Assembly (NCBI GenBank): GCA_029261065.1
Contig: JAJDCB010000029.1
Coordinates: forward strand, 15,448 to 79,447
Direction: 5' to 3'
Length of the DNA stretch: 64,000 bases
Origin: Candidatus Omnitrophota bacterium
Lineage (GTDB): Bacteria > Omnitrophota > Gorgyraeia > Zapsychrales > Zapsychraceae
The notes below the pieces were generated by a model. That model saw only the letters and a list, made by a program, of their open reading frames with translations, searched no databases and was not told where the DNA came from. A program made the translations under genes and the position numbers. Below are positions 28,449 through 49,426 of the stretch, piece after piece. Each line of letters opens with the position of its first letter. Position 1 is the stretch's first letter.

Positions 28449-29159
28449 ATGAATGAGCTTTCTGAAAATTCTTATATTTCAGTTATAATTCCTGCCTTCA
28501 ACGAAGAAGTCTCCTTACCCAAAGTCATCAATGACATTCCCAAAAATATTGTTAAAGATATTATTGTCGTTAACAATGCCAGTACAGATAATACTCCTGA
28601 AGTGGCTCGTAACATGGGATGTATTGTCGTTGAGGAGCTTAAAAAGGGTTATGGACAAGCGTGTCTTGCTGGAATTGCTGCCTTAAACCCTAAAACAGAC
28701 ATTGTTGTTTTTTTAGATGGTGATCATAGTGATCATCCTGAGCAAATGCAAAAACTCATTGATCCTATGGGTCGAGACGGTATTGATTTTGTTATTGGAT
28801 CACGTGCTTTAGGAGAAAGAGAGCGGGGAGCAATGGCTCCTCAGGCTTTTTATGGCAATAAGCTTGCGTGTTTCTTAATGAAATTGTTTTGGGGCTACAC
28901 GTACACAGATCTCGGACCATTTAGAGCCATTAATTATCAAGCCCTTAAGCGTTTAAATATGATCGATCAGGATTTTGGCTGGACAATCGAAATGCAGATT
29001 AAAGCGATTGAATGTGGTTTAAAAATTAAAGAAGTCCCTGTCGATTATCGTAGACGTATAGGTAAATCTAAGATTTCAGGTACATTTAAAGGAACGCTTT
29101 TAGCAGGTGAGAAGATATTGCGTACTATTTTTAAGTATAAATTTTTCGTAAAAAAGTAA
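28449..29159 (+). CDS. GT2 polyprenyl-phosphate sugar synthase (Dpm1/Ppm1-like)
   Basis: SVIIPAFNEE, DGDHSD (DXD), 236 aa. Soluble GT-A. Confidence 0.65.
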   Translation: MNELSENSYISVIIPAFNEEVSLPKVINDIPKNIVKDIIVVNNASTDNTPEVARNMGCIVVEELKKGYGQACLAGIAALNPKTDIVVFLDGDHSDHPEQMQKLIDPMGRDGIDFVIGSRALGERERGAMAPQAFYGNKLACFLMKLFWGYTYTDLGPFRAINYQALKRLNMIDQDFGWTIEMQIKAIECGLKIKEVPVDYRRRIGKSKISGTFKGTLLAGEKILRTIFKYKFFVKK

Positions 29160-29165
29160 TCTAAA

Positions 29166-30725
29166 ATGACAGACCACTTGAATAAAAAGATTGTCTTACT
29201 GGGAACCCTCTCAACCCTAATTTGGGTTTTTGTGATGATGATGTCTAAGGGATTGCCTGTGTTTTTTTGTCAGTGGTTAGATGCTATTTCCTTTCAGATG
29301 TTGACCAAAGAAATTATGCAAATGACTCATGGTTTTTATTATCAGGTCAACAACAATGATATGCCTACCGTTATTTATATCGGTTTTTTTATGATATGCT
29401 TTTTAATTATGCTTTATTTAGTGCGACGTCTTGAGAAGAATAAAAGACAAGATTTTGTTTTGGGTTGGATTGTATTGTTTTCCATACTCTTTCGCTGTGT
29501 CTTACTTCCTGCAGAACCTATCCATGAAAATGATTTTTACCGGTATCTGTGGGATGGAAAATCAGCCAATCACGGTATAAACCCTTTTAAATATGCTCCG
29601 GCTGATTTATCAATCTATGAAGCTCAGCTTAATGAAGATTTCTTAGATTTTGACAGCGAGGAGGTTCAAGAAATAAAAGAATTTAGAGAAGATGATTTTA
29701 AAAAACTGGATCATCTTATTGAATTACGCGATCAGAATTACCTTTTTTATGAGCGTATCGGGCATCAAGAAGTACCAACCATTTATCCACCTGTAGCCCA
29801 AGGAATCTTTGCAGGCATCACATTCTTATGGGAAGATCACTTTGTTTTTATGAAGATAATTTTTATGCTTTTTGATATAGGTGTGATATTTCTTATCATC
29901 GCTTTATTGTCGCATCTTAAATTAAATCCCTGCATGGTTATTATTTATGGTTGGTCGCCATTAGTTTTAAAGGAATTTGCTATCTCCGGACATTATGATT
30001 CTATCCCGATATTTTTTACCACTTTAAGTTTGTTTTTATTAGTAAAAGGCAAACAGTTAGGAGGCTCTGTGTTTTTGGCCATGGCTGCGTTATCAAAGTT
30101 TTTCTCAGGGTTATTGTTGCCCTTGTACTTTCGAAAAATGAAGTTTATTTATCTTTTTTGTTTTGCTCTTATTTGTGTGGTGTTTTATGTGCCCTATGTG
30201 CTTTGGAATGATACAGGTCTTCATGGCGTTTTTAAAGGGTTACATGTTTATAATCAAGAATGGAATTATAACTCTAGTGTTTTCGCGGGCGTTTATCTAT
30301 TGTTAGATAAGTTCATGCCGCAACTAACAAATGAGCTATTAAACGTTAAATTAATTGTAGCGGGGATATATGGCTTGATTGTCTTAACAATGGCTGCTAT
30401 CGCGCATCGAAACGATTTAGACTTTTTACATAAGTGCTTCCTTGCTATAGCTTTACTGTTTATTTTTAACCCAGTAGGAGATCCATGGTATTTTTGCTGG
30501 GCGATTCCATTGTTGTGCCTTTTTCCTTATAGATCTTGGATTTGGTTGTCTGGTTTATTAATTTTGAGTTATTTGAATTTTCATAGTGATTTGGGTGTTA
30601 TTAATGATAGATGGTTAGATATTCCAATAATCAGTTGGGTCATATACATACCTTTTTTCTTATATGTATTATTTGAGTTAGTGACAAAAAAATGTAAGGT
30701 TAATGATATTTTGACGACTAAATGA
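29166..30725 (+). CDS. GT-C-type integral membrane glycosyltransferase (DUF2029/PimE-like)
   Basis: 519 aa, more than 10 TM segments. Immediately downstream (7-nt gap) of the Dpm1-like GT2. Confidence 0.4.
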   Translation: MTDHLNKKIVLLGTLSTLIWVFVMMMSKGLPVFFCQWLDAISFQMLTKEIMQMTHGFYYQVNNNDMPTVIYIGFFMICFLIMLYLVRRLEKNKRQDFVLGWIVLFSILFRCVLLPAEPIHENDFYRYLWDGKSANHGINPFKYAPADLSIYEAQLNEDFLDFDSEEVQEIKEFREDDFKKLDHLIELRDQNYLFYERIGHQEVPTIYPPVAQGIFAGITFLWEDHFVFMKIIFMLFDIGVIFLIIALLSHLKLNPCMVIIYGWSPLVLKEFAISGHYDSIPIFFTTLSLFLLVKGKQLGGSVFLAMAALSKFFSGLLLPLYFRKMKFIYLFCFALICVVFYVPYVLWNDTGLHGVFKGLHVYNQEWNYNSSVFAGVYLLLDKFMPQLTNELLNVKLIVAGIYGLIVLTMAAIAHRNDLDFLHKCFLAIALLFIFNPVGDPWYFCWAIPLLCLFPYRSWIWLSGLLILSYLNFHSDLGVINDRWLDIPIISWVIYIPFFLYVLFELVTKKCKVNDILTTK

Positions 30726-30778: not shown

Positions 30779-31570
30779 ATGAAAAATTGGCATGTCGTTG
30801 TTATTTGTTCATTGGGTCTTTTTTTGATATCTTGTAATCAGCCGACTAAAGTGTCTTCTCAGGAAAAGGTTGTTAGCTCATCAAAAATACTCGTTGACTA
30901 TAATATTTGGAATAATGTCTTAAGGACATACGTTAATGATGAAGGGCTGGTGAATTATGATGGTCTTAAGGCGAATCGTGGGAAGCTCGATCAATTCGTT
31001 GCTCAAGTGAAAACGGCAAATATAGACTCATTAAGCTCAAATGAAAAAAAGACGTTTTGGATTAACGCCTATAATGCTTTAACCTTAAATCTTATTGTTG
31101 ATAATTATCCTCTAAAATTTGGTGGGATTCGAACGATTAATTGGGGTAGGCCATGGAGTATTAAGATGAAGGTGGCTAACCAAGATTTGACATTAGGCGA
31201 GATTGAGCATGAGATTTTAAGAAAATGGGATCCCATTGATCCTCGTATTCATTTTGCCATCAATTGCGCCTCTATTGGATGTCCTAAATTACCCAATAAA
31301 CCCTTCTACCCTGAAACCTTGGATGAACAGTTAGAGTTTGAAGCCAAACGTTTTATCAATGATAAAGAAAAAATTCGGTTAGATAAAACTACAAATATCC
31401 TTCATTTCTCGGCTATTCTCGATTGGTTTAAGGATGATTTCTTGGTTGTGGAAGAGGACATCTTAAGTTATATTAAGAGATATCTTAACGAGGAAGATGT
31501 GAACTATTTAGAGAGCCATGAGGTAACATTAAAGGCGTCAAAGTATGATTGGGGTTTAAATAAAAAATAG
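30779..31570 (+). CDS. DUF547 domain lipoprotein
   Basis: Lipobox LISCNQ. YNALTLNLIVDNYPL and IHFAINCASIGCP match DUF547. Confidence 0.5.
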   Translation: MKNWHVVVICSLGLFLISCNQPTKVSSQEKVVSSSKILVDYNIWNNVLRTYVNDEGLVNYDGLKANRGKLDQFVAQVKTANIDSLSSNEKKTFWINAYNALTLNLIVDNYPLKFGGIRTINWGRPWSIKMKVANQDLTLGEIEHEILRKWDPIDPRIHFAINCASIGCPKLPNKPFYPETLDEQLEFEAKRFINDKEKIRLDKTTNILHFSAILDWFKDDFLVVEEDILSYIKRYLNEEDVNYLESHEVTLKASKYDWGLNKK

Positions 31571-31595
31571 TACGGATAAGATGAAGGAGAGGGAT

Positions 31596-32648
31596 ATGGA
31601 AACGTTTACACATCAAAAAGTATCAGAATATTACGGGAAGGTATTAAAGACAAAAAATGATTTAAAAACAAGTGCGTGTTGCACGTTAGATAAATTGCCG
31701 GTATATGTCAGAGAGCCTTTAAAGCTTATAGAAGATGAAATTCAAACAAAATTTTATGGGTGTGGATCGCCTTTTCCATTAGTGCTGGATGGTATGAAAG
31801 TTCTTGATTTAGGTTGTGGGACGGGGCGTGATTGTTTTGTCCTAAGTTATTTTGTAGGTGAAAAAGGTGAGGTTGTTGGGGTTGATATGACAAAGGAGCA
31901 GCTTGAGGTTGCCCATCGATATACGTCCATTCAGATGGAGAAGTTTGGATATAAGAAACCGAATGTTAAATTTTTTCATGGGTATATTGAAAATCTTCAA
32001 GAAATTGAGCTGCCAGATAATTATTTTGATATTGTTATTTCTAATTGTGTTGTGAACTTATCACCGGATAAACCTTCTGTTTTAAAAGAAGTTTTTCGTG
32101 TTTTAAAAGAGGGGGGCGAGTTCTTTTTTTCTGATGTCTATGCCGATCGTCGTTTGCCTCAGTGGGCGCGTGAAGATCAAGTTCTTTTGGGAGAGTGTTT
32201 GGGAGGGGCTTTGTATTGGAAAGATTTTGAACGGTTGGCTAAGAATACAGGCTTTAATGATCCGCGCGTCTTTGCCTGCTCTAAAATTGATTTACATGAT
32301 CAAGAAACTATTGATAAAATTGGATTTGCACATTTTAATTCTATTACATATCGCCTTTTTAAATTAAAAAATCTTGAAGATGCCTGTGAAGATTTTGGTC
32401 AGGTCGCAACATACAAGGGAACAATTAAAGAAAGCAAGCATCAGTTTATGTTAGATAATCATCACCTCTTTGAAGAGGGAAAGCCGATGCTTGTCTGTTC
32501 GAACACAGCCAGTATGCTAGAAGATACGCGTCTTAATAAACATTTTGATATTGAAGGAGATCTTTCTACACATTACGGGTTATTTGAAGGGTGTGGTGAA
32601 TCTCCTATTGAAAGTGATTCTGATAAACCAGCTGGAGGGTGTTGTTAG
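31596..32648 (+). CDS. arsM: arsenite S-adenosylmethionine methyltransferase (ArsM/AS3MT family)
   Basis: SAM motif I VLDLGCGTGRDCF. ArsM-conserved Cys contexts TSACCTLD (N-terminal Cys pair), ISNCVVNLSPDK and LLGECLGGALYW. ATG 31596 preceded by AAGGAGAG; the ORF opens at 31581. Confidence 0.65.
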   Translation: METFTHQKVSEYYGKVLKTKNDLKTSACCTLDKLPVYVREPLKLIEDEIQTKFYGCGSPFPLVLDGMKVLDLGCGTGRDCFVLSYFVGEKGEVVGVDMTKEQLEVAHRYTSIQMEKFGYKKPNVKFFHGYIENLQEIELPDNYFDIVISNCVVNLSPDKPSVLKEVFRVLKEGGEFFFSDVYADRRLPQWAREDQVLLGECLGGALYWKDFERLAKNTGFNDPRVFACSKIDLHDQETIDKIGFAHFNSITYRLFKLKNLEDACEDFGQVATYKGTIKESKHQFMLDNHHLFEEGKPMLVCSNTASMLEDTRLNKHFDIEGDLSTHYGLFEGCGESPIESDSDKPAGGCC

Positions 32649-32666: not shown

Positions 32667-33317
32667 ATGCCCATTGATATCATCATCCCCATTCTCAACG
32701 AAGAAAAAATTCTTACCGAAAAAAAAGACTACTATTCCAAACTACAGAAATTTTCCAATGTTGTCTTTGTTGATGGCGGTAGTTCTGATCGTTCTATAGC
32801 AGTGGCAGCCCAGTATGGAGAGGTTATTGAATCAAAGAAGGGACGAGCCTTTCAGAAAAACTTTGGTGCCAAACATACCCAATCCGAATTCCTCCTATTT
32901 TTACATGTTGATTCTTTTATAAATACAAAAAGTCTTAAAAAAATTGTTTCTCTATTAGAAAAGAAGAGTGTGGCTGGATGTTTTCAAATGAAAATTTTAG
33001 ATACGAGATTGATTTTTCGGTTATATGAATGGGCAGTCAATACAAGAGCGAAAACTTTAAAAGTCCTTGATGGCGATTTAGGCTTGTTTATCAGGCGTGA
33101 CGTTTTTGAAGGTTTAAATGGCTATGATCAATTGCCAGTGATGGATGACATTGTCTTTTCTAAACGTTTGCGAGATAAAGGAGAAGTTGCCATATTAGAT
33201 GACGCGATTTATGTCTCTAGCCGTAAATGGCATGAAAGTGGTTTTTATATCACGTTATTTCAATATTCTTGGGCGTATTTGAAACTGTGGTTTGGCATTC
33301 TAAGGCCTTCAAAATAA
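32667..33317 (+). CDS. glycosyltransferase, TIGR04283-like (rSAM/selenodomain-associated transferase 2 type)
   Basis: IIIPILNEE...FVDGGSSD GT-A signature. 216 aa. 19 nt downstream of arsM. Confidence 0.5.
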   Translation: MPIDIIIPILNEEKILTEKKDYYSKLQKFSNVVFVDGGSSDRSIAVAAQYGEVIESKKGRAFQKNFGAKHTQSEFLLFLHVDSFINTKSLKKIVSLLEKKSVAGCFQMKILDTRLIFRLYEWAVNTRAKTLKVLDGDLGLFIRRDVFEGLNGYDQLPVMDDIVFSKRLRDKGEVAILDDAIYVSSRKWHESGFYITLFQYSWAYLKLWFGILRPSK

Positions 33318-33423
33318 AGAGTAAAGCACAAAAAATTGATTATTTCTTGCCTTTTGCTGATATCATTTTATATTATTAATAAGAGATAAATCTTAGATTA
33401 ATCTATCATGATTGGATAAAACA

Positions 33424-34077
33424 ATGAAACTAGAAGACGTAACACAAATTTTATCATTAGCATTTACGAATGCTATACTAGAAATTTTTCAAACAACGGT
33501 TCAAATACCAGTGAAAGAAACGGAAGATGATTGCCTTCCATCTGGAGATATGTCTCTGGTTAGTTCTATTGGGATAACAGGAGGCATTTCTGGGAATGTG
33601 AGTGTCTGTTGTTCAAAAGAGTCAGTAGCTAAGGTTATTTCTAAAATGCTTGGTACGGAGGTTACGGCGGATTCTGAAGATTTGAAAGATGGGCTTGCAG
33701 AGATTGTCAATATGGTTGCAGGCTCAACAAAGAATAAATTGGAAGTCACACGTTTTCTTATAAATTTAAGTATTCCAACAACCTTGATGGGGAATCAAAT
33801 TTGTATAGAAAAGTCTAAGAATACAGAGCTTATTGAGAAAGATTTTGTTAATGATTTAGAAGGTGTTGCAATAAAAACATATTTTGCTTTTAAAATAGTT
33901 CCTGATGAAGAAGCTAAAAAAGCACAAGAGGCTATAGCTAATGCGGGGAATGCTGAGCTTAATGAGATGGAAAGTTTAATGAAATTATCGGAAGGAGCGG
34001 CTTTAGCAGAACTGGCTGAAGAGACTCCGAAAGACGATACACCGCCACCACCAACACAACCACCTCCTGCGAGTTAA
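33424..34077 (+). CDS. CheX/CheC-family protein with Pro/Ala/Glu-rich C-terminal extension
   Basis: CheX-like core (LSLAFTNAILEIFQTTVQIPV...GISGNVSVCCSKE...EIVNMVAGSTKNKL). Tail ...DDTPPPPTQPPPAS. The ORF opens at TTG 33412. Confidence 0.5.
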   Translation: MKLEDVTQILSLAFTNAILEIFQTTVQIPVKETEDDCLPSGDMSLVSSIGITGGISGNVSVCCSKESVAKVISKMLGTEVTADSEDLKDGLAEIVNMVAGSTKNKLEVTRFLINLSIPTTLMGNQICIEKSKNTELIEKDFVNDLEGVAIKTYFAFKIVPDEEAKKAQEAIANAGNAELNEMESLMKLSEGAALAELAEETPKDDTPPPPTQPPPAS

Positions 34078-34119
34078 ATATTATATCACCTTTAGATATG
34101 TTCCATTTTTTCTTTGATT

Positions 34120-34527
34120 ATGTCTGCTGAGAGCGAGAATAAAATAAATTCTGTGCGAGTTGACAAATGGTTGTGGTCTGTGCGCATTTGTAAGACGCGT
34201 AGAATTGCTTTGGATTTGTGCAAGAAGGGAAAAGTGTTTATCAATGATCAGCCAGTTAAGCCATCGCGAGATGTTAGAGTAGGAGATATTCTGTCAGTGA
34301 GACGCGACGGGATTTTATTTACTTTTGAGGTCTTAAAATGCATTGATAAGAGGGTTGGCGCACCGATTGCTGAAACTTGCAGAAAAGATAAGACTACTAA
34401 AGAAGAACTCGAAAAAATTGTCATGATTAAAAAGGGGTGGGTTCCGCGTAGAGAAAAAGGTGCTGGTCGCCCTACTAAGAAAGATCGAAGAGATATGGAA
34501 GCTTTTTTGGATCCAGATCGAGAGTAG
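34120..34527 (+). CDS. S4 RNA-binding domain protein (Hsp15/HslR-like)
   Basis: VRVDKWLWSVRICKTRRIA...GKVFINDQPVKPSRDVRVGDIL S4 motif. Basic C-terminal tail. The ORF opens at TTG 34114. Confidence 0.55.
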   Translation: MSAESENKINSVRVDKWLWSVRICKTRRIALDLCKKGKVFINDQPVKPSRDVRVGDILSVRRDGILFTFEVLKCIDKRVGAPIAETCRKDKTTKEELEKIVMIKKGWVPRREKGAGRPTKKDRRDMEAFLDPDRE

Positions 34528-34535
34528 AATAAATT

Positions 34536-35378
34536 ATGAATAGAACATCAGAACCGGTTAGAGCCCATGATACCCCTTGGCGGGCGAGTCTTTACAAAGT
34601 CATATTTGAAGCTGAAACACCAGCAGGAAAAAATTTTGATGTCGTTTTGTTGTGGGCGATTTTGATAAGTGTGATAGCTGTACTTTTAGAAAGCGTGCAG
34701 TCTATTGGCGCCCAGTATGGGGCTACTTTACGTGCCATAGAATGGATATTAACCATTCTGTTTTCAATTGAGTATTTGGTGCGATGTCTATGTGTTAAAA
34801 AGCCATTTCAATACATGAAGAGTTTTTTAGGCGTCATCGATTTTTTCGCCATTATCCCAACATTTCTCAGTTTAATTATGATAGGAGCGCAATCACTATT
34901 GGTGATTCGAGCGCTTCGTTTGTTGCGTGTTTTTCGTGTGCTTAAATTGGGGCGTTATTTAAAAGAATTTAATATCTTAATCAAAGCCCTAAAGAGTAGT
35001 TACGACAAGATTATGGTTTTTTTGTTTTCAATCCTTACCTTAACTCTCATTGCCGGAACCGTGATGTATCTCGTTGAAGGTGAGTCTAGTGGTTTTACGA
35101 GTATTCCTCGTAGCATTTATTGGGCGATTGTAACGATGACCACGGTCGGTTATGGTGATATTGCCCCAAAAACGGTTCTTGGTCAATGTATAGCCTCGAT
35201 AATTATGATTTTGGGTTATGCTATTATCGTTGTTCCCACCGGTATCTTCTCTGTTGCTCTTACGCGTGCGACATTAGAGGAGGGTTCCAAAAAATATTGC
35301 CCTCATTGTAAGATTTCCGCTTATGGTCACGACGCATATTATTGTCGCATTTGCGGGACAGCCCTGGATCTTGGTTAA
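34536..35378 (+). CDS. voltage-gated K+ channel (6TM, Kv-like) with C-terminal zinc-ribbon
   Basis: S4 voltage sensor RALRLLRVFRVLKLGRYLK. Selectivity filter TTVGYGD. C-terminus CPHCK...CRICG (CXXC...CXXC). Confidence 0.75.
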   Translation: MNRTSEPVRAHDTPWRASLYKVIFEAETPAGKNFDVVLLWAILISVIAVLLESVQSIGAQYGATLRAIEWILTILFSIEYLVRCLCVKKPFQYMKSFLGVIDFFAIIPTFLSLIMIGAQSLLVIRALRLLRVFRVLKLGRYLKEFNILIKALKSSYDKIMVFLFSILTLTLIAGTVMYLVEGESSGFTSIPRSIYWAIVTMTTVGYGDIAPKTVLGQCIASIIMILGYAIIVVPTGIFSVALTRATLEEGSKKYCPHCKISAYGHDAYYCRICGTALDLG

Positions 35379-35433
35379 CTCATTTTCCACATCCTAAGTA
35401 GAATCGATTTATTATTGTGCTATAATATGCGCT

Positions 35434-37842
35434 ATGCATAAACGGATACCTAAGTTTCTTTTTGTTTTTTTCTTTCTATCTGGGGCTAGTGCGTTGATGT
35501 TTGAGATCGTCTGGCAACGCTTAATGGTTCTTATATTTGGGTCGAGTGCTCCGGCAACTACGGCTATTCTGACGGCTATTTTCTGTGGTTTTGCCTTAGG
35601 CAGTTGGGTGGGAGGAAAACTTTTACGGAAGATTAAACGTGTTTATCTTTTTTACGCGGCCATTGAGATTTGGATTTGCCTTTGGGGTATTTCGGTTCCG
35701 CATCTTCTTAAAGGGGCTGATGCCCTACAATTGATTATGTTTAAAAGTGCTTCGATGGGGAGTTTGTCATTCTTTTTTGGTCGTTTTGCGTTGGCAATTT
35801 TGGCTGTTCTTCCCGCGACATTTGGGATGGGGGCTACCATCCCAGTCATGAACAAAATTTTAACACAATTTCGATCCATTGGACCTGGAATTGCTTTGGC
35901 TTATGGAGTCAATACGATTGGCTCAGTGGGGGGCTGCCTCTTAACAGGGATCGTATTGATACCAACGTTGGGCATCAACCATTCTTTGATGGTCGCTGGA
36001 AGCATGAACTTAATTGTTGGATTTGGGTTATGGATTTATTCCGTGGCAGGCCAAGAACGCGTTCTGGCTATTGCTAGCGAGGATAAGATTTCTGAGCAGA
36101 AAACACAGCCTAAGCTTAAATCTTCTCTTACATCGCAGTTAATGTTTTTTTATTTTATTTCTGGCTTTTTAGCCCTTGGTTACGAAATTGTTTGGTTTCG
36201 TTTGATGGGGATGTTGACCACAAACTCTATGATCACCTTTACCGTAGGTCTCGCGGTTTACCTTTTGGGTTTTTCTTCCGGAAGCCTTCTTCTTTATCCA
36301 GCGCTTTCAAAACGTTTATCAGCAGGGTGGATTTTTTTCTATTCCAATGTTGGTGCTGGTCTGATGACGTTATGTTTGATTCCTCTCTATTATTATTTTT
36401 CTGATATTAACCATTTACGCTTTTTAGATCAATGGTTTGATGCGTGGCAGTTAACACCTTATTTACGTATAGTCCTAGAGGAAGGTTTTTTTGCCTTCAT
36501 CATTATGTTGATTCCACCTGTTTTTATGGGGCTCGCCTATCCATCCATTTGTGCCTTAACGATTTCTGATGTAAGTCAAACACCCAATCGAAGTGGTTGG
36601 ATTTATTCTCTTGGCACCTTTGGCGCGGCTTGCGGTGCGATTTTGGTGGGGTTAGGTATTGTGCCGATTTTTGACATTATGATGAGTTTAGCTCTTTTGT
36701 GTTTAATGAGTTTTATATTATCTTTTGCCACAATGATGAGTATTGATTCTGATTTTCGAAAAGTAAAAGGGTCTTTATCAACAGTTCTGATTTTTTTGAT
36801 CATCATCGCATTAAGTTACGGTTTTTTAGCTCATCCCATTATTAGGGGAGGAGGTCGTTTGACTAAGAGCGGGGATCACTGGTTATTTAAAGATCCTCAT
36901 CCGGAATTCCCTAACGCTAAACGAAGTTTGCATCGCTATAAATCGGGTGGTGTTGGAAATGTTAGTGTGGATCAATTTGAAACGAGAAAAGAAACATTTC
37001 GACGGTTGTTAATAGACGGACAGAGAGTTGCTTCAACAAGGTTTGGGCCAAAGGTCGATGCCAAGATGCTCGCGCATGTTCCGTTAGCCATTCATCCCCA
37101 ACCAGAACGTGCTTTAAGTGTGGGTTTTGGTAGTGGAGGTACATCTTGGTCGATGACACGTTACGGCATTGAAGTGGATTGTGCAGAGATCGAACCAGAG
37201 GTTGTCCGTTCCGCTCATCTATTTTCTGATCAAAATTATAATATTTTAGAGGAGCCTAACTACCGTGTTATCATGAATGATGTTCGTAATTATCTTCATT
37301 TAACGGAGCAACGTTATGATGTCGTTTCAACGGATGTCACAAATTTGCAGTATAAACAAAATGGGAGTTTATATACTAGAGAATACTTTCAATTAATAAA
37401 AGATCATTTGACTAGTGATGGTGTGGCTGCCGTATGGATGCCGATGCTTTGGAGTAATGTTTATGATTTTCAAATATTACTTAAGACCTTTCAAACAGTC
37501 TTTCCACATAGTTCTGTTTGGTATTTTGACAGTTATTATGTGATCCTCATTGGCACCCCTGAGCCATTAGAAGTTGATGAAAAACGTTTAGCCTCTCTTT
37601 TCCGTGATCCTAAAATTGCTGCTGATCTAAAGGAAATCAATGTTACAACTCCTGAGCAATTTCTTGAATTTTTGATTATGGATGAAGAGGGGGTGAGTAA
37701 AATTTCAGAAGGGATGCCGATACATACCGATGATTATCCCATTTTAGAATTTAGAAATATTCCTCATCTCTATTATGGACAAATGGTGACACTTAAGGAT
37801 ATTGCCCCTTTTCTCATCGATTCTACATCAATTGCGGAATAA
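35434..37842 (+). CDS. fused polytopic membrane domain / spermidine-synthase-like aminopropyltransferase
   Basis: About 14 N-terminal TM helices. C-terminal SpeE-like fold (ALSVGFGSGGTSWSM, VIMNDVRNYL, YDVVSTDV). Confidence 0.55.
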   Translation: MHKRIPKFLFVFFFLSGASALMFEIVWQRLMVLIFGSSAPATTAILTAIFCGFALGSWVGGKLLRKIKRVYLFYAAIEIWICLWGISVPHLLKGADALQLIMFKSASMGSLSFFFGRFALAILAVLPATFGMGATIPVMNKILTQFRSIGPGIALAYGVNTIGSVGGCLLTGIVLIPTLGINHSLMVAGSMNLIVGFGLWIYSVAGQERVLAIASEDKISEQKTQPKLKSSLTSQLMFFYFISGFLALGYEIVWFRLMGMLTTNSMITFTVGLAVYLLGFSSGSLLLYPALSKRLSAGWIFFYSNVGAGLMTLCLIPLYYYFSDINHLRFLDQWFDAWQLTPYLRIVLEEGFFAFIIMLIPPVFMGLAYPSICALTISDVSQTPNRSGWIYSLGTFGAACGAILVGLGIVPIFDIMMSLALLCLMSFILSFATMMSIDSDFRKVKGSLSTVLIFLIIIALSYGFLAHPIIRGGGRLTKSGDHWLFKDPHPEFPNAKRSLHRYKSGGVGNVSVDQFETRKETFRRLLIDGQRVASTRFGPKVDAKMLAHVPLAIHPQPERALSVGFGSGGTSWSMTRYGIEVDCAEIEPEVVRSAHLFSDQNYNILEEPNYRVIMNDVRNYLHLTEQRYDVVSTDVTNLQYKQNGSLYTREYFQLIKDHLTSDGVAAVWMPMLWSNVYDFQILLKTFQTVFPHSSVWYFDSYYVILIGTPEPLEVDEKRLASLFRDPKIAADLKEINVTTPEQFLEFLIMDEEGVSKISEGMPIHTDDYPILEFRNIPHLYYGQMVTLKDIAPFLIDSTSIAE

Positions 37843-41829: not shown

Positions 41830-43059
41830 ATGGGGAAATTCTGCACTAGACCATTTGAATGGATTGAGATCCAGAATAAAGACGCTTATCTGTGTTGTCC
41901 GGGTTGGATGAAGGACATAAAGGGGGTAAGTATTGAGGGTAAGAGTGTCAATGAGATATGGAATGACCCTCATTTTCAGGATATCCGAGCATCCATTTTA
42001 GATGGTTCCTTTCGATACTGTGATTCTCAGTTTTGTCCGTTTATGAAGCAGCCAGATATGCCTCATTGGGAGGAGAGTGGTTCGCCTTTCAAAGATAAGG
42101 ATGGTATAAAAGATCCAGCCTTGCGTCATATTATTGAGCAGAAAATCACTCATTTAGAATCTCCCCCATTGATTTGGAATTGTGGTCATGATAGGACGTG
42201 TAATTTGTCATGTCCTTCTTGTCGCAGCAAGATTTTTGCGTTAGCCCAGCAATATGTTCAAAAAGAAATAGCCTTTAGTGATTTCGTTTTATCGGAAATT
42301 GGTCAAGACTTGAAATATCTTTATATCACCGGAACAGGTGATCCTTTCGCCAGTCAAGTTTATCGAGAACTTTTATCACAGTTATCATCAGAACAATATC
42401 CAAAATTAGAGGTGCATCTGCATACCAATGCTGTTTTATGGACGAAAAAGAATTGGGAGACCATGAGTGGCATTAATCAACGTATCACATCAACACATAT
42501 CTCTATGGATGCGGTAACGGCACAGACGTATGGCATTGTTCGTCGAGGAGGCGACTTTGGTATCTTGATGGAAAATCTTAAGTTTGTGGCACAGTTAAGA
42601 AAAGAAGGGCCGTTGAAATACGTTATGATTAGTTTTGTTGTTCAAGATGCTAATTTTCGTGAGATGCCTCGCTTTATTGAAATTTGTGAAGAGTTTGGTT
42701 TTGATTTGGTTTTGTTTACGAGGGTAAGAAATTGGAATCTTTTTACACCCTATGAGTTTGATCAACTAGCTGTTGATCAACCCATTCATCCCGATCATAA
42801 TGCATTTTTAGATATCTTAAAGCAGCCCTGTTTTGACAAACCTCATGTTGGTATTGGAAATTTTTCAGGATTAAGAAAGAAAGCTTTGGCTCAATCTTCG
42901 CAAAAGAAAATCGTTTCGGTTACAGAGAATATGGTTTATCGATATCAGTGGTATGTTAGACGATTGAAACAATGGTTCATTGAGCACTTTCCAATTCTTG
43001 CCAAACAATTGATTCATTTGAAACAACGGATTTTAAGAAAGGGAAAGCTCGCAGCGTGA
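41830..43059 (+). CDS. radical SAM protein with N-terminal Cys-rich extension
   Basis: CNLSCPSC (CX3CX2C) at about aa 120. N-terminal extension with 5 Cys (CTRPFEW...YLCCPGW...RYCDSQFCPF). Stop overlaps the next gene's start (GTGA). Confidence 0.5.
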   Translation: MGKFCTRPFEWIEIQNKDAYLCCPGWMKDIKGVSIEGKSVNEIWNDPHFQDIRASILDGSFRYCDSQFCPFMKQPDMPHWEESGSPFKDKDGIKDPALRHIIEQKITHLESPPLIWNCGHDRTCNLSCPSCRSKIFALAQQYVQKEIAFSDFVLSEIGQDLKYLYITGTGDPFASQVYRELLSQLSSEQYPKLEVHLHTNAVLWTKKNWETMSGINQRITSTHISMDAVTAQTYGIVRRGGDFGILMENLKFVAQLRKEGPLKYVMISFVVQDANFREMPRFIEICEEFGFDLVLFTRVRNWNLFTPYEFDQLAVDQPIHPDHNAFLDILKQPCFDKPHVGIGNFSGLRKKALAQSSQKKIVSVTENMVYRYQWYVRRLKQWFIEHFPILAKQLIHLKQRILRKGKLAA

Positions 43060-43727
43060 AGAAGGTTCATTCTCTCATTATTTTTGCAAGGGAACCGCGA
43101 GAGGGGAAAGTTAAAACGCGATTAGCCAAAGATTTATCAAAGCCAGTTGTTTTAAGTTTGTATAAAAATTTTATTAAAGATGTTCTAATTGTTGCCAAAA
43201 AAGTCTCCTCTCAGAGGCGCTATATTTTTTATGTGGGATTAAGCCGCTCCATTCCATTTTTAAGATCTTATCAAAAGTCATTTATATTAAAACGTCAATT
43301 TGGTAAAGACTTAGGAGAGAGGATGTTAAGAGCCTTTCTTTGTGCTGCCCGGGAAGGGGCCCATTCGACCATTATTATCGGAACGGACTGTTTGACGATC
43401 ACAGCGAAAGATATTGAAGCGGCTTTTGCCAAACTAAAAACGCATGATTGTGTCTTAGGCCCAAGCATTGATGGTGGGTATTACCTAATAGGTCTAAATA
43501 AACCCTGTCCCAGCTTATTTAATGATATAGTTTGGAGCACGGAAAAGGTTCTTGATCAAACGTTAAAACGGGCAAAGAGCAATAATATGAAGGTGGCTTT
43601 ATTATCCAAAAAAGAGGATATCGATACGATTTCTTCTTTTAGGAAATATGCTAAAAAGGTTGTCAATTCTTCTGAGGATTCGTATACTAGGAGACTAATT
43701 AAGACTCGTTTATTGAGCGAAATTTAG
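43056..43727 (+). CDS. DUF2064 / TIGR04282-like nucleotidyl-transferase-fold protein (rSAM/selenodomain-associated transferase 1 type)
   Basis: N-terminus SLIIFAREPREGKVKTRLA is the hallmark DUF2064 motif. GTG start overlapping the upstream TGA. Confidence 0.5.
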   Translation: MKKVHSLIIFAREPREGKVKTRLAKDLSKPVVLSLYKNFIKDVLIVAKKVSSQRRYIFYVGLSRSIPFLRSYQKSFILKRQFGKDLGERMLRAFLCAAREGAHSTIIIGTDCLTITAKDIEAAFAKLKTHDCVLGPSIDGGYYLIGLNKPCPSLFNDIVWSTEKVLDQTLKRAKSNNMKVALLSKKEDIDTISSFRKYAKKVVNSSEDSYTRRLIKTRLLSEI

Positions 43728-43795: not shown

Positions 43796-44794
43796 ATGAA
43801 AATTTTACATCTGTATTCTCAAAAAAGTGAACATCTATCCGCGTTTATTGACGATTTATCGCAAAAACTGTTTGCCAGTGATGTTGTTGTTGAACAAATG
43901 TGTTTGAAAAAAGCAAATGGTTTAAAAGCGATTTGGGATTTGTCTCGGAAAATTAAAAAAGAGAAGATCGATTGTGTGCACAGCCATGATCGATCTTCTT
44001 TAATTATAGGAACATTAGCCGCACGTCTGGCCGCTTCTTTGGCGATAAGTACGGTTCATCAGGTTTATCCAAAGAAGGTTTCTTCTTTTATTTGGAATTT
44101 AAATAAAAACGTTGTTTTTGCCACACGCTACATTAAGACGAGAATGTTAAGAAGAAATCGTATGGCTGCTCATCGTATTTCTGTTATTTATCGAGGAATA
44201 GAGATAGAGACAAATGGCGTGTTTGATAAAAATCAGGAACGAGCACAGTGGGGGGTAAATCCTGAGAGTTTTATTATTGGCAGTGCTGGGCCGTTAGAAT
44301 TTAATGAGGATCAAACAACCTTGTTAAAGGCTTTTCGTAAATTACGCAAAAAGAATTTAGATTCTCAATTGGTTTTTGCAACAAAGGGTTCTTTAAAAGA
44401 TCATTTAAAGACAAAGGCCAAAGAATTTGATGTTTTAGATCGTGTTGTATTTTTAGATGGAAAATCAGATCTTAATCAATTTTTACAATCCATCGATTTA
44501 CTAGTTGTTTCCGCTATTGATGGGCCAAGACCTGAGATGTTGTTGCAGTCGATGAGGGCAGGAACGGCTGTGATTGCGACTAATATTTTTGGGCATGATG
44601 AATATGTTGAGCATAATAAAACAGGCTATTTGGTTCCTTGTGGATATCCTGAGAAAATTGATACATCCATTATGCGTTTGAATGCGATTAAAACATTGCC
44701 AGCTCAAATGGGCGAGGCCGCTCGAGAAAGAGGTCAAGAAACTTTTAATTTAGGTCATATGTCTGAATCTTATTTAAAGCTGTATACGCAATAG
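43796..44794 (+). CDS. glycosyltransferase family 4 (GT-B)
   Basis: C-terminal GT1/GT4 motif region (LLVVSAIDGPRPEMLLQSMRAGTAVIATNIFGHDEYV...GYLV). Confidence 0.55.
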   Translation: MKILHLYSQKSEHLSAFIDDLSQKLFASDVVVEQMCLKKANGLKAIWDLSRKIKKEKIDCVHSHDRSSLIIGTLAARLAASLAISTVHQVYPKKVSSFIWNLNKNVVFATRYIKTRMLRRNRMAAHRISVIYRGIEIETNGVFDKNQERAQWGVNPESFIIGSAGPLEFNEDQTTLLKAFRKLRKKNLDSQLVFATKGSLKDHLKTKAKEFDVLDRVVFLDGKSDLNQFLQSIDLLVVSAIDGPRPEMLLQSMRAGTAVIATNIFGHDEYVEHNKTGYLVPCGYPEKIDTSIMRLNAIKTLPAQMGEAARERGQETFNLGHMSESYLKLYTQ

Positions 44795-44887: not shown

Positions 44888-45247
44888 ATGGATATTCAAA
44901 TTAATACGTCAGAACGCCCTTGGGGGTATTACATAAAATTTTTACAAGAAGAAGGTGTTTGGGTTAAACGTGTGGAAGTTAAGCCTGGATGCCGGTTAAG
45001 CCTACAAAAACATGCTCATCGATCAGAAAAGTGGAATATTGTCACAGGCGTTGGTGTTGTCACCTTAGATGATCAAGAAATCCCAGTCAAAGCGGGATCC
45101 ATCATAGATGTCCCCTTAGGCGCTGTACACCGGATTGCCAATACAGGAGATTCAAAACTTGTATTTATTGAAGTCGCTTGCGGTGATGAATTATCCGAAG
45201 ATGACATTATTCGCATTCAGGACGATTATAATCGCGAAGATGCTTAA
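44888..45247 (+). CDS. cupin domain protein (mannose-6-phosphate isomerase type II C-terminal-like)
   Basis: Cupin motifs RLSLQKHAHRSEKWNIVTG and GAVHRIANTGDSKLVFIEV. Confidence 0.5.
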   Translation: MDIQINTSERPWGYYIKFLQEEGVWVKRVEVKPGCRLSLQKHAHRSEKWNIVTGVGVVTLDDQEIPVKAGSIIDVPLGAVHRIANTGDSKLVFIEVACGDELSEDDIIRIQDDYNREDA

Positions 45248-45372: not shown

Positions 45373-47007
45373 ATGATTTATCAAATTTCTATATCATTTG
45401 TAATGGCTTTTTTGTTCTTTGTGCTCTTTTTTGCTGTTTTTACAAAAGGGGCGCATAGTGCTACATCTAGAACGTTTAATGTGCTGATCTTAAATATGGC
45501 TTTGTGGTCGTTGGCCATCGCGATGTTTTATTTTAGTGAAACGCCTTCCTCTGAGATGTTTTGGACGAATGTCTTATATGTTACAGGTAGTATGATTCCC
45601 TCCTCATTTTATCAATTTTCTTTTATTTTTCCTTTTGGTTCTGTCGCCATTTCTCGCTTTAAACGATTTATGATATTTGTTCCAAATATTATATTGTTTG
45701 GGCTGTTCTTTTTTACACCTTGGATGGTCAAAGATATTGTTGTCATTGATGGTGTTAAAAATTTTATATATGGGCCCGCGGGTTTTTTATTTAATATTCA
45801 ATTTATTGTTACTTTTTTTCTCGCCTATTTAAGATTGTTTCCTTTAATGAATACTTCTTCTGGTGTTTTAACCAGCCGACTGCGTTATATTATTTTTGCA
45901 TCTCTCTCAGGTGTTATTCTTGCCGGAACCACCAACGTGATTATGCCAGCATTAGGACGTTTTGAAATGGTGTGGTTGGGACCACCATTAACGATTACGT
46001 GGTTAGTGGGTGTTGTGTATGCGATTCTTAAATATAAAATTATTGATATGCGTTTTATTATTCGACGTAGTCTTATTTATTCGTTTTCAGTAACAATTAT
46101 TTCCGTAACGTTTTTAATTTGTGTTATGACATTTGAGAGGGTGTTTCAAGGCATTGTGGGCTATGAGAACTTTATTGGTTCAACGATTGCAGCTACAATT
46201 ATTGCTTTAATGTTTACGCCTATTAAGAATAAGGTTCAATATTGGATTGATCGCTTGTTTTTTAAGGGATCACAAGTAGAAATTGCTGAACAAAATGTGC
46301 GTCTGCGTGAAGAGATAGCACGGGCTGAGAAATACAAGTCTTTGGCTAACATCGCAAGCGGGGTTGCTCATGAAATCAAAAATCCACTAACAGCCATATA
46401 TACTTTTTCTGAATATTTGCCGCATAAATTACATGATGAGCAGTTTTTGAATAAGTTTTCAAAAATTGTTCATAAAGAGGTTCATCGGATTAATGATTTA
46501 GTTCATCAACTTCTTGAATATGGAAAACCAGCGCCTCTTTGTGAGAAGCAATGCGATGTCAATAAACTCATCGCTGATACGTTGTTGATGTTAAAAAGTA
46601 AGTTTTATGATCGAAATATCCATCTTAAGACAATTTACTCTCATGAAGATTTGTCTATTCAAGTAGATCCCAATCAAATTCGTCAGGCGTTATTAAATGT
46701 TTTACTTAATGCGATAGATGCGATGCCTGAGGGGGGGTATCTTTGGGTTGAAACCAACGTCAATCGTTTACATTTTTGTATATCTATTCGTGATTCTGGT
46801 ATTGGGATTGCTCAAAATCGTTTAACACATATTTTCGAACCTTTTTATACTAAAAAGGATGAGGGGACAGGATTGGGGTTATCTATTACACAGTCCATTA
46901 TAGAAAACCATGAAGGCCGTATAAAAGTTAAAAGCGCCCCAAATGCGGGTGCGGAATTTATCATAGAATTACCACTAGATTTAGATGTTTATAAAGTAGG
47001 TATTTAG
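45373..47007 (+). CDS. sensor histidine kinase with polytopic N-terminal membrane domain
   Basis: About 8-10 TM segments. H-box GVAHEIKNPLTAI. N-box LLNVLLNAIDA. G-boxes RDSGIGI and GTGLGLSI. Confidence 0.7.
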   Translation: MIYQISISFVMAFLFFVLFFAVFTKGAHSATSRTFNVLILNMALWSLAIAMFYFSETPSSEMFWTNVLYVTGSMIPSSFYQFSFIFPFGSVAISRFKRFMIFVPNIILFGLFFFTPWMVKDIVVIDGVKNFIYGPAGFLFNIQFIVTFFLAYLRLFPLMNTSSGVLTSRLRYIIFASLSGVILAGTTNVIMPALGRFEMVWLGPPLTITWLVGVVYAILKYKIIDMRFIIRRSLIYSFSVTIISVTFLICVMTFERVFQGIVGYENFIGSTIAATIIALMFTPIKNKVQYWIDRLFFKGSQVEIAEQNVRLREEIARAEKYKSLANIASGVAHEIKNPLTAIYTFSEYLPHKLHDEQFLNKFSKIVHKEVHRINDLVHQLLEYGKPAPLCEKQCDVNKLIADTLLMLKSKFYDRNIHLKTIYSHEDLSIQVDPNQIRQALLNVLLNAIDAMPEGGYLWVETNVNRLHFCISIRDSGIGIAQNRLTHIFEPFYTKKDEGTGLGLSITQSIIENHEGRIKVKSAPNAGAEFIIELPLDLDVYKVGI

Positions 47008-48668
47008 AGTTGATTATTTTGATGGAGCCATTGTTTGGCCTTGTTATGACCAAGAGAAGCCGCCATATTGGCATCCTTTAGGGCTTCGGCGTGTTTATTG
47101 AGGTGATGATAAATCTTGGCCCTATTATAGTAGATGGTCGCATCTTTAGAGTTAAGTTTTAGAGATGATTGATAATCTTTAAGCGCTTGTTCAAAGTTAT
47201 TTAGAAGAGCAAAGGTATTCGCACGATTCATATAAGCACTTTCATAATCAGGGTCTAGTTTGATAGCTAAACTATAATCCGTAACGGCCTTTTTGTACTG
47301 TTTTAAGGCTGCAAACGCGTTAGCTCGATTATTGTAAGCTCGTGCATGATCCAGTTTTAGTCTTATAGCGTTATCGTAGTCTCCAATCGCTTCTTTAAGT
47401 TGTTTGCGTTTTTTATATTCAATTCCCCGATTGTTATAAGCCATCCAACATTCAGGATTCTTTTTTAGGACATCTGTAAATAAAACAAGATTATTTTTAT
47501 AGACTAATGTTTGTTGCCAAGATAAAAAAGAAAAACTTGTAATGAGGAATGAAAAAACAACGATTCTTGCCTCTAAGTTAAATCGTTTAGTTATGTATTG
47601 ATAGATAAAACTTATCAATCCTACTAATACGCCAATACTGGCTACATATTGAAGATGGTCGGCAACAAAGGTATAGCGCATTAAATAAAAATTGATAAAT
47701 CCGAGTGCTGGTAACAATAAAACGATAAAGAATAAAATAGCAACAATTGGACCCTTGCCTAGTTTGTTTCTCTTCCAGAAAAACCACGAGATAACAGCAG
47801 CTGTAGCCAATATAAAAAGATATCCACGGAAATCCGCAACATCAACATTCCATTTAGTGTAAACAAAGCTGATCGGATAAGGGAAAAGAATCTTTCCACC
47901 ATAAAACCAAAGCGCTTTGCTCGCTATCAAACAACGTTGGATCCACGATAAATCCCAATCTGCTCCTTGAGCACCCACATGATTTTTTTCCATCCAGATC
48001 GTAAATAACCCTAATACTAAAGAAATGAGGAAATAGGGAGCTAGTAGTAAACAATCTTTAAATTTAATTTTTTCTTTTTTCCACCACAAAATTCCAAGCA
48101 AAGCAATTGGAAAGGTGCAAAAAGCGGTTTTGCTAAATAAACATAGGATAAATAAGAGAAGAGATAGAAAATAGTATTTTTTCTTTTGAAGATTACAGAA
48201 GTTAGTGGCGTAAGCTTTAAGATAGCTTAGGAGAGAGGCTAATAAAAAGACAGCTGATAAAACATTTTTTCTTTCTGCAACCCAAGCAACAGATTCTACA
48301 TATACAGGGTGGACGGTAAATAAAGCAGCGCAGACCCAGGCTCCGTGTATATTTAAGTGCAGGAGAATCAAGTACAGCAAAATAGCACTGATACTATGAA
48401 TCAAAATATTTATAAGGTGCGAATAAAAGGGGGTGTGATCAAAAAAATAATTTTCCAGCCAAAAAGAACTGTGTGTTAAGGGGTAATAGGGGTGTTCTGT
48501 TATTGTTGGCTGTAGCCATATGTTTTTAAGGCCATCAACAGTTGTTAGATGGGCATCTGTTAGATAAACATCGTCATCCCAAACATAATCGTTAAATGGG
48601 GCTTTTGAATAGGTGAGGAGTGTGAGAAAGATGATGATAAATATTTTAAAAGCGATTTTCATATTCAC
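47004..48668 (-). CDS. TMTC/PMT-like membrane protein with C-terminal TPR repeats (putative protein O-glycosyltransferase)
   Basis: N-terminal about 11 TM segments. C-terminal tandem TPRs (AYNNRGIEYKKRKQLKEAIGDYDNAIRL..., AYNNRANAFAAL..., AYMNRANTFALL..., YYNRAKIYHHL...). Confidence 0.5.
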   Translation of the reverse strand: MNMKIAFKIFIIIFLTLLTYSKAPFNDYVWDDDVYLTDAHLTTVDGLKNIWLQPTITEHPYYPLTHSSFWLENYFFDHTPFYSHLINILIHSISAILLYLILLHLNIHGAWVCAALFTVHPVYVESVAWVAERKNVLSAVFLLASLLSYLKAYATNFCNLQKKKYYFLSLLLFILCLFSKTAFCTFPIALLGILWWKKEKIKFKDCLLLAPYFLISLVLGLFTIWMEKNHVGAQGADWDLSWIQRCLIASKALWFYGGKILFPYPISFVYTKWNVDVADFRGYLFILATAAVISWFFWKRNKLGKGPIVAILFFIVLLLPALGFINFYLMRYTFVADHLQYVASIGVLVGLISFIYQYITKRFNLEARIVVFSFLITSFSFLSWQQTLVYKNNLVLFTDVLKKNPECWMAYNNRGIEYKKRKQLKEAIGDYDNAIRLKLDHARAYNNRANAFAALKQYKKAVTDYSLAIKLDPDYESAYMNRANTFALLNNFEQALKDYQSSLKLNSKDATIYYNRAKIYHHLNKHAEALKDANMAASLGHNKAKQWLHQNNQL

Positions 48669-48670
48669 TA

Positions 48671-49426
48671 TTATGCAGACTTAGCAATGATTTTTGGTTC
48701 TTGTGAATTTTTCAAATGATGTCTATTTCTCCAAAGGGAGTAGATGCTTTTAGCATAGTGGCTACCTAATTCTTTAAATTTAAAACGTGTTTGACCAAAT
48801 TTTCGAGCATACCACTGGGTTGGAATAACACAATAGCGATATCCGCGTAATATAGATTTCAGTGGCATCTCAACGGTAATATTAAATTTTTCAGCCTCAA
48901 GTGGCTGTATGTCTGTAATCACTTCCCGAGAATAGCATTTAAAAGCGTTTGATAAGTCCCGATAAGGCAATCGAAAAATCAGAGCAAGCCATTCATTAAC
49001 GAAGCGATTTAATAGAAATTTTAGTACAGGGTAACCCTTAGGGGATGTTTCTTTGCTCCAGCGCATCCCAAAGCAACAATCATATCCTTCTTCTGCCTTT
49101 TGAATATAGTGAATGATGTCTTTAGGGTCATCAGAGGCATCGGCCATTGCAATGATACAATAATCACCATTGAAATGTTTAAGGCCTGTTTTAATAGCAT
49201 GACCAAAACCGAAAGGTGGGGGATTTACAATTAAGTGGATGCGGGTGTCTTTTTGGGATAGTTGTTTAACAGCGGAAGATGTTAAATCTGTTGAACCATC
49301 ATCAATAACAAGAATTTCAAATGACGTTTGATTATTGTGAAGTTCATTAATTATGTTTTTAATGGTTGTTGAAATGTTATTGGCTTCGTTTTTCGCTGGG
49401 ATGATTATTGAAAAATGATGTGACAT
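48671..49426 (-). CDS. GT2 polyprenyl-phosphate sugar synthase (Dpm1-like)
   Basis: FSIIIPAKNE, VIDDGSTD. 251 aa. 2 nt upstream of the TMTC-like gene. Confidence 0.6.
   Translation of the reverse strand: MSHHFSIIIPAKNEANNISTTIKNIINELHNNQTSFEILVIDDGSTDLTSSAVKQLSQKDTRIHLIVNPPPFGFGHAIKTGLKHFNGDYCIIAMADASDDPKDIIHYIQKAEEGYDCCFGMRWSKETSPKGYPVLKFLLNRFVNEWLALIFRLPYRDLSNAFKCYSREVITDIQPLEAEKFNITVEMPLKSILRGYRYCVIPTQWYARKFGQTRFKFKELGSHYAKSIYSLWRNRHHLKNSQEPKIIAKSA

Follow-up and report, generated by a model that had tools for sequence, protein, structure and literature searches.

The question raised by the locus described here is whether three pairs of glycosyltransferase genes lying close together on one stretch of bacterial DNA each provide a separate route for the transfer of a lipid-linked sugar, and whether the three belong together. 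The stretch is a 64-kb segment of the Candidatus Omnitrophota contig JAJDCB010000029.1 (positions 15,448 to 79,447), referred to in full as the window. A preliminary description had reported that three soluble GT2 (GT-A fold) genes are each followed immediately by a gene for a GT-C membrane transferase within 21 kb, and this layout was confirmed: all six open reading frames (ORFs), their coordinates, and their strands (Table 1) are borne out by the ORF list of the window, and in each of the pairs, here called a, b, and c, the GT2 gene lies upstream of its multi-pass membrane gene on the same strand. In the sequence, the two genes are 6 nt apart in pair a and likewise 6 nt apart in pair b; in pair c the distance is 2 nt if GTG is taken as the start codon and 8 nt with the ATG of the public gene call. 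Same-strand spacers of 2-8 nt imply co-transcription within each pair, and three same-strand GT2-then-GT-C junctions of no more than 8 nt cannot be due to chance. The three GT2 proteins are 24-29% identical to one another, and HHalign comparison of the three GT-C family profiles revealed no relationship (probabilities of 2.7% and 6.3%, to which shallow alignments may contribute). The GT-C partners represent three unrelated families, and because the GT2s differ this much and the GT-Cs show no detectable relationship to each other, the pairs are independent modules and not duplicates.

The best explanation of each pair is a synthase of a lipid-linked sugar together with a periplasmic transferase, as the preliminary description had proposed; a natural gene fusion in pair b and conserved adjacency in pair a speak most directly for it. 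The soluble GT2 would act at the cytoplasmic face, using a nucleotide sugar to glycosylate polyprenyl phosphate; the lipid-linked sugar would then be translocated across the inner membrane by some mode of flipping, and the co-transcribed GT-C would use it on an acceptor at the periplasmic face. That the locus holds three independent modules of this kind, in which the synthase makes the lipid-phosphate sugar that its own GT-C transfers, is likely, and we hold this view with good confidence. Three-component systems in which a lipid-phosphate sugar synthase and a GT-C are encoded side by side are exemplified by GtrA/GtrB/Gtr* and by the PPPRS/MATE/GT136 system of C. youngae (PMC11127046), and differ from the present modules in two respects: their synthases are membrane-anchored, those of the window soluble, and a flippase is absent from all three modules. 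No GtrA-, SMR-, or MATE-type flippase gene was found among the annotated ORFs of the 64-kb window, where the gaps between 28 and 50 kb are too short for such a gene to have been missed; this absence is mildly unusual. The principle of a GT2 partnered with a GT-C, and all three family types, are already known, and the locus is otherwise a routine example. If the modules work in the proposed way, an uncultivated Omnitrophota-like bacterium would decorate its envelope by three distinct lipid-linked sugar routes.

Membership of the three GT2 proteins in their family is secure, the Pfam Glycos_transf_2 model (PF00535; gathering score 23.3) scoring 82 bits for GT2a, 84 for GT2b, and 90 for GT2c. Their top NCBIfam and PDB matches are AglJ, dolichol-phosphate mannose synthase (DPMS), PpgS, PgfS, ArnC, and GtrB, all with scores far below curated cutoffs. 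GT2a is matched best by the AglJ model in NCBIfam (127.7 bits over residues 10-230, short of the cutoff of 325) and by the DPMS structure 5MLZ in the PDB. The same structure leads the PDB matches of GT2b (1.2e-13), followed by GtrB and ArnC, with PpgS also matched, and the matches of GT2c to ArnC (2.7e-15), DPMS (4.8e-14), and GtrB (1.9e-11) span its whole catalytic domain. Hydropathy analysis gave no transmembrane (TM) segment in GT2a or GT2c and a weak peak, attributable to a core strand, in GT2b. The proteins thus lack the C-terminal TM anchor helices of the GtrB/ArnC/PfDPMS subtype and fit the TM-less subtype instead, of which human DPM1, mycobacterial PpgS, and the catalytic domain of Ppm1 are examples. 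The absence of TM helices in all three synthases is mildly unusual. GT2a, GT2b, and GT2c are best described as putative polyprenyl-phosphate sugar synthases, whose specific activity and sugar are predictions from sequence relationships.

The case for functional coupling appears strongest for pair b, because the two enzymes occur elsewhere as one polypeptide and as an overlapping ortholog pair (loci and proteins from other genomes are given L and P numbers). The 734-aa (amino acid) protein P0246 is a natural GT2-ArnT fusion: over its first 241 residues it shares 52% identity with GT2b (E=2e-90) and over the rest 48% identity with GTCb, the GT2 domain lying at the cytoplasmic N-terminal side. 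In L170 and L171, a 46%-identical ortholog of the GT2b gene overlaps the GTCb ortholog by 4 nt. The membrane partner itself scores 92.7 bits against Pfam PMT and 64.4 bits against PMT_2. Its alignment with ArnT (structure 5EZM) over residues 9-344 has an E-value of 8.5e-28, and a family profile matches that structure at 9.3e-45. Residues D29, K62, D135, E241, H242, R245, and Y329 of GTCb align with ArnT D55, K85, D158, E266, H267, R270, and Y345 (C. metallidurans numbering, after correction for the +3 offset of the deposited 5EZM chain) and are invariant in 23 family members; D55, K85, D158, R270, and Y345 are catalytic or phosphate-binding residues of ArnT, and roles in lipid-phosphate binding and catalysis are quoted for K85, H267, and R270 (PMC7801869).

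Pair b accordingly recalls ArnC/ArnT, the undecaprenyl-phosphate 4-deoxy-4-formamido-L-arabinose (Ara4FN) synthase of GT2 and the GT83 transferase of 4-amino-4-deoxy-L-arabinose (Ara4N) to lipid A, as well as the ArnT-family variants by which other sugars are attached to lipid A: a GT2 gene precedes one for an ArnT-family GT-C, and the GTCb family keeps the seven ArnT residues. Unlike ArnT, GTCb has Gly in place of two of the three Zn ligands (E84 and H265), possesses a shorter C-terminal periplasmic domain, and scores 146 bits against the ArnT equivalog NF009784, for which the cutoff is 567; GT2b lacks the TM helices of ArnC, and no arnA/B/D- or arnE/F-like genes were found among the annotated ORFs of the window. 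GTCb is clearly an ArnT-family enzyme and not the Ara4N-lipid A transferase itself. Pair b would most likely decorate lipid A/core, or else a different glycolipid of the envelope, and the sugar added would be one other than Ara4N.

Pair a is the ancestral pair of the three, and conserved adjacency supports its functional coupling. A GT2a ortholog (55-76% identical) adjoins the GTCa ortholog in seven of the eight closest relatives and lies adjacent to, or within about 0.8 kb of, GTCa relatives in 14 of 80 species from several phyla and in both gene orders; no GT2a ortholog was found beside the GTCa relatives of more distant Verrucomicrobiota and Nitrospinota clades. GTCa itself gave no Pfam match even at E<=1 and so stays under the GT87 threshold, and its family was reached through homologs: P0003, at 52% identity, scores 37.3 bits against GT87 (PF09594; gathering cutoff 25), and many others are annotated as PF09594/PF26314 (GT87/MptA_B). 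The AlphaFold2 model of GTCa is of high quality (predicted local distance difference test score, pLDDT, 91.5; predicted template modelling score, pTM, 0.92), and its top 14 Foldseek matches in the PDB are exclusively GT-C or GT-C-like proteins, among them PIG-U, PimE 9DM5, GPI mannosyltransferase I, ALG6, ArnT, ALG9, PglB, and EmbB, with top probabilities near 1 and marginal E-values (about 3e-3). The motif H120-E121-x-D123...R126-Y127 is invariant in the family and opens a 95-residue acidic loop. On the model, GTCa would combine a PimE-like GT-C fold with conserved acidic residues in the first periplasmic core loop (E121 and D123, invariant together with H120).

The closest parallel to pair a is the mycobacterial synthesis of phosphatidylinositol mannosides (PIMs), in which Ppm1 (GT2), PimE (GT87), and the GT4 enzymes PimA/PimB take part. 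As in that pathway, the partner of a TM-less GT2 is a GT-C of the GT87-like kind. Its model agrees with PimE 9DM5 at a probability of 1.00 and a TM-score of 0.63 on the target, and a GT4 gene and a cupin gene of the mannose-6-phosphate isomerase type (PMI-type) lie in the same cluster. GTCa differs from PimE in falling under the GT87 Pfam threshold, in its two extra N-terminal helices, and in the 95-residue acidic periplasmic loop; the ArsM-like, TIGR04283/TIGR04282, DUF547, and DUF3568 genes of the cluster have no counterpart in PIM synthesis, and the host is Omnitrophota-like and not an actinobacterium. The GT-C1 cluster, which includes the structural neighbours PimE and PigM, consists entirely of mannosyltransferases (PMC8476585). 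Because the neighbours of GTCa fall in this group, and because the gene cluster holds the PMI-type cupin and the GT4, mannose is by analogy the most likely sugar of pair a, which would most likely extend a product of glycolipid type with mannose in the manner of Ppm1/PimE.

In pair c, the identification of the membrane enzyme is more roundabout. The C-terminal tetratricopeptide repeats (TPRs) of GTCc are readily recognized (Pfam TPR_1, 98 bits). Its membrane domain gave nothing, or TPR matches only, in phmmer and profile searches of the PDB, and no Pfam match across nine family members; HHalign of the GTCc family against the ArnT family was also negative. Two homologs of 42-44% identity, P0137 and P0172, and two tandem paralogs do pass PMT_2 (28-31 bits; cutoff 26.1). 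The AlphaFold2 model (pLDDT 91.8) has 11 long TM helices followed by TPRs at residues 391-551, and an 11-TM domain with C-terminal TPRs is the architecture described for TMTC proteins (PMC7801869). Several TMTC motifs can be located: W28-D29-D30 (M1, invariant), Y59-Y60-P61 (part of M2), R131 (M3), K178 (M4), and R329-Y330 (M7), together with a conserved helix, F115-x-V-H118-P119, that resembles the 'LLFAVHPIHT' of TMTC3. GTCc is thus predicted to be a TMTC-like GT-C, an assignment that is transitive, running through homologs, model, and motifs. The family calls of the preliminary description (PimE/DUF2029-like, ArnT/PMT-like, and TMTC-like with TPRs) are in this sense upheld by the profile hidden Markov model, structure-prediction, and motif tests.

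The comparison with metazoan DPM1 and TMTC1-4, which are GT105 protein O-mannosyltransferases with luminal TPRs, extends to the loop-1 DD, the F-x-V-H-P helix, the Lys of M4, the Arg of M3 and of M7, and the lack of a TM helix in GT2c as in DPM1. "TMTC-like" holds for the architecture and for these motifs; it does not hold for the DUF1736 domain (PF08409), which was not matched in GTCc or nine relatives, for the metal-binding Glu of M4, which is replaced by Thr (K178-T179), for the DW motif (M5), whose position is not conserved, or for the PxxP of M6, which is absent. GTCc also has only four TPRs, and in contrast to TMTC its donor would be a bacterial polyprenyl phosphate and its protein acceptors are putative. 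The repeats may lie on the non-cytoplasmic side, a positive-inside count with the helix boundaries of the model having given no clear sidedness. Pair c would most likely glycosylate a periplasmic protein, or possibly a polysaccharide, recruited by the TPRs.

The family of the GTCc membrane domain is very large, comprising 98,021 clusters at 50% identity (E<=1e-3), and literature searches on bacterial TMTC-like enzymes and on Omnitrophota GT-C enzymes returned nothing functional and no characterised bacterial TPR-fused GT-C. Genes of this TPR-fused GT-C family often stand in tandem arrays of divergent paralogs, as on peat and soil metagenome contigs (L087, L088, L151, L146, and L086), with up to six copies in L087 and L088; these arrays suggest a diversification of acceptor specificity. 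In the window the family carries an apparently dedicated donor synthase, so that a two-gene construct could identify both sugar and acceptor.

Table 1. Positions in the window of the three gene pairs and of the features around them (aa, amino acids; TM, transmembrane).
Feature	Position	Strand	Description
DUF3568 lipoprotein-like gene	27958..28353	+	Pfam 97 bits; one N-terminal hydrophobic segment, then Cys
GT2a	28449..29159	+	TM-less GT2, 236 aa; putative polyprenyl-phosphate hexose (possibly mannose) synthase
GTCa	29166..30725	+	GT87/PimE-like GT-C membrane glycosyltransferase (predicted)
DUF547 protein	30779..31570	+	Pfam DUF547; N-terminal signal/lipoprotein-like segment; orthologs in L005, L007-L009, L013, L022
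ArsM-like SAM (S-adenosylmethionine) methyltransferase	31581..32648	+	NF008823 arsenite methyltransferase, 176.6 bits (cutoff 263)
GT2d	32667..33317	+	TIGR04283, 192.6 bits (cutoff 182); syntenic in relatives
Segment 1	33412..43059		CheX, S4-domain protein, ion channel, fused MFS/spermidine-synthase-like, PAS-GAF-GGDEF, pair b, radical SAM gene
GTCb	39494..40951	-	ArnT-family (GT83/PMT_2) GT-C transferase
GT2b	40958..41683	-	TM-less GT2, 241 aa; putative polyprenyl-phosphate sugar synthase, partner of GTCb
Radical SAM/twitch-like protein	41830..43059	+	409 aa; CxxxCxxC at residues 124-131; NF033640, 72 bits (cutoff 170)
TIGR04282/DUF2064 protein	43056..43727	+	TIGR04282, 191.7 bits (cutoff 134)
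GT4 (GT-B) cytoplasmic glycosyltransferase	43796..44794	+	Glycos_transf_1, 96 bits; orthologs in L002-L004, L008, L009
Cupin, mannose-6-phosphate isomerase C-terminal type	44888..45247	+	PF01050, 100 bits; 70-81% identical in L002, L007-L009
Segment 2	45373..49426		Histidine kinase and pair c
GTCc	47004..48668	-	TMTC-like GT-C membrane domain (about residues 1-390; predicted) and four C-terminal TPRs
GT2c	48671..49426	-	TM-less GT2, 251 aa; putative polyprenyl-phosphate sugar synthase
rpoN (sigma-54)	49500..50888	-	All three Sigma54 Pfam domains; end of the conserved block; upstream of GT2c on the same strand

The acceptors named in the preliminary description, lipid A or lipids, and proteins, are not specifically supported: no Ara4N or lipid A genes lie nearby, TPRs are also found in polysaccharide-export proteins, of which PgaA is one, and a polysaccharide locus begins 2 kb away. 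This locus (51669-63109, + strand) encodes polysaccharide assembly and export functions, namely Wza, Wzz/GNVR, an AAA_22 ATPase, a ParA-like kinase, an NAD-dependent epimerase, a polysaccharide deacetylase, a 773-aa ATP-grasp/GNAT protein, Wzm, and Wzt with a Wzt_C domain. Between rpoN and the Wza gene, at 51309-51323 (+ strand), lies a sequence close to the sigma-54 promoter consensus (TGGCATGGTATTTGC, one mismatch). The main rival to three self-contained modules starts from this polysaccharide locus. In it, at least one of the pairs would be a Gtr-like modifier that adds periplasmic side-chain sugars to the adjacent Wza/Wzz/Wzm-Wzt polysaccharide, the TPRs of GTCc binding or scaffolding the glycan or the export machinery. 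The distance of about 2 kb between pair c and the start of the locus, a weak match of the GTCc TPRs to the PgaA model of NCBIfam, and the fact that GT2 synthase, flippase, and GT-C together form an established route to O-antigen side chains (PMC11127046) all lend it some weight, which is reduced by the lack of a flippase gene with any pair, by rpoN and a 780-nt gap standing between pair c and the polysaccharide genes, and by the ArnT-type residues kept in GTCb. Pair a, moreover, sits in a conserved cluster of its own in relatives, and no Wza/Wzz ortholog was found in those loci. Modification of the neighbouring polysaccharide is unlikely on balance, and stands ahead of the other alternatives.

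A second alternative concerns the setting of pair a, whose GT-C gene lies within a widely conserved ArsM-like/TIGR04283/TIGR04282 cluster, a mildly unusual location. Within this cluster, conservation is highest for the gene of the ArsM-like methyltransferase (70-81% identity in relatives), and among the closest relatives (L002-L009) GT2a and GTCa always accompany it. The methyltransferase residues Cys33/34, 61, 156, and 206 are invariant, at a spacing that presumably matches the catalytic cysteines of characterised ArsM enzymes, and both TIGR04283 and TIGR04282 carry the NCBIfam name 'arsenosugar biosynthesis glycosyltransferase'. Pair a could then be the periplasmic arm of an uncharacterised pathway built around the ArsM-type methyltransferase and the TIGR04283/TIGR04282 proteins, with the lipid-linked sugar and the GT-C helping to make an organoarsenical (arsenosugar-type) or similarly methylated envelope glycolipid; or else the GT2s could dock on their GT-C partners as flippase-free complexes, as they are joined in the P0246 fusion. 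No ArsS-type radical SAM gene was found in the pair a cluster, the radical SAM protein of the window having no match to ArsS and the clusters of relatives having no radical SAM gene, and a literature search on TIGR04282/TIGR04283 returned nothing functional. Either idea is speculative and we regard it as rather improbable. The DUF3568 gene, which lies upstream of GT2a in L002-L005 and L007-L009 and is duplicated in two Omnitrophota metagenome-assembled genomes (MAGs; L003, L004), could encode an accessory protein of pair a or an acceptor that the pair glycosylates.

Several observations weigh against assigning a dedicated donor synthase to each GT-C, and some of them would suit a third possibility, in which the GT2s are ordinary cytoplasmic enzymes that glycosylate soluble or lipid-PP-linked acceptors and the GT-Cs take their donor from a common housekeeping supply of polyprenyl-phosphate sugar synthesized elsewhere in the genome. 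All three GT2s score far under every NCBIfam equivalog cutoff, and none has the TM helices of GtrB/ArnC; for GT2a and GT2b, the match to the soluble enzyme GpgS is about as good as that to ArnC; and a canonical DxD (D-G-D) is present in GT2a only, GT2b having D-S-G and GT2c D-A-S. Most relatives of GTCb and GTCc are without a neighbouring GT2, including the close GTCb relatives P0247, P0249, and P0273 and the two closest GTCc relatives, P0122 and P0127. A polyprenyl-phosphate-type GT2 adjoins GTCc relatives in 7 of 80 loci, where the GT2s are not orthologs of GT2c (22-30% identity) and some have C-terminal TM helices; among GTCc-family members with N-terminal extensions no GT2 fusion was found. 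The association of GT2 with GTCc is modular and not orthologous, and functional coupling is weakest for pair c. Against ordinary cytoplasmic enzymes stand the GT2b-GTCb fusion, the orthologous genes of L170 with their 4-nt overlap, the adjacency of GT2a and GTCa kept across phyla in both gene orders, and the alignment of GT2c with ArnC, DPMS, and GtrB over the whole catalytic domain. Polyprenyl-phosphate synthases without TM helices are known, and three independent junctions of 2-8 nt make a meaningless layout unlikely. This third possibility seems to us a shade less probable than the second, and dedicated synthase-transferase modules remain the preferred explanation.

Whether the three modules form an ensemble, as the preliminary description implied, can be judged from the gene order in relatives, mostly Omnitrophota MAGs, which are collinear over hemCD-(hemB)-hemL-DUF3568-GT2a-GTCa-(DUF547)-ArsM-like-TIGR04283-TIGR04282-GT4-cupin-rpoN. 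In L002-L009 the TIGR04282 gene follows GT2d directly and none of the genes of segment 1 is present, and in L007 and L008 nothing of segment 2 (histidine kinase, GT2c, GTCc) separates the cupin gene from rpoN, which comes directly after it in convergent orientation. Orthologs of pairs b and c in other genomes lie in unrelated gene contexts. Because the block of the relatives holds pair a only, and pairs b and c sit in lineage-specific segments that interrupt it, the three-pair cluster is, on this comparison of loci, lineage-specific and not a conserved unit. A coordinated glycosylation island serving a common target or pathway is the least probable of the alternatives: three pairs, a fourth GT2, a GT4, and a PMI-type cupin do lie within 21 kb, with rpoN, a histidine kinase, and a GGDEF protein interspersed, but the collinear relatives lack pairs b and c with their flanking genes, the genes in between are functionally unrelated (CheX, S4-domain protein, ion channel, spermidine-synthase-like), the orthologs elsewhere share no context, and matches to the sigma-54 promoter are not enriched in the window (48 found, 38 +/- 6 expected). 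A recent mobile insertion of segments 1 and 2 was considered and rejected, there being no flanking repeats, integrase, or GC shift.

Scans of the window for sigma-70 promoters and terminators did not exceed shuffled expectation, and Rfam and tRNA scans yielded only one tRNA-Lys, far from the pair region. The radical SAM/twitch-like protein at the end of segment 1 has no Pfam match and only sub-threshold NCBIfam matches; the last 4 nt of its gene are shared with the beginning of the TIGR04282 gene, and the radical SAM gene is absent from the clusters of relatives. Segment 1 also encodes an 802-aa protein (35434-37842, + strand) with about 12 or more hydrophobic segments and a spermidine-synthase-like domain, which passes NF037959 ('fused MFS/spermidine synthase'). 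Conserved upstream of the cluster in relatives is a 697-aa ORF (23563-25656, + strand) in which porphobilinogen deaminase, a SUMT-type tetrapyrrole methylase, and uroporphyrinogen-III synthase are fused. Strand bias is strong across the window, almost all genes lying on the + strand with a uniformly positive GC skew, and the minus strand holds just two coding blocks, pair b and rpoN-GT2c-GTCc.

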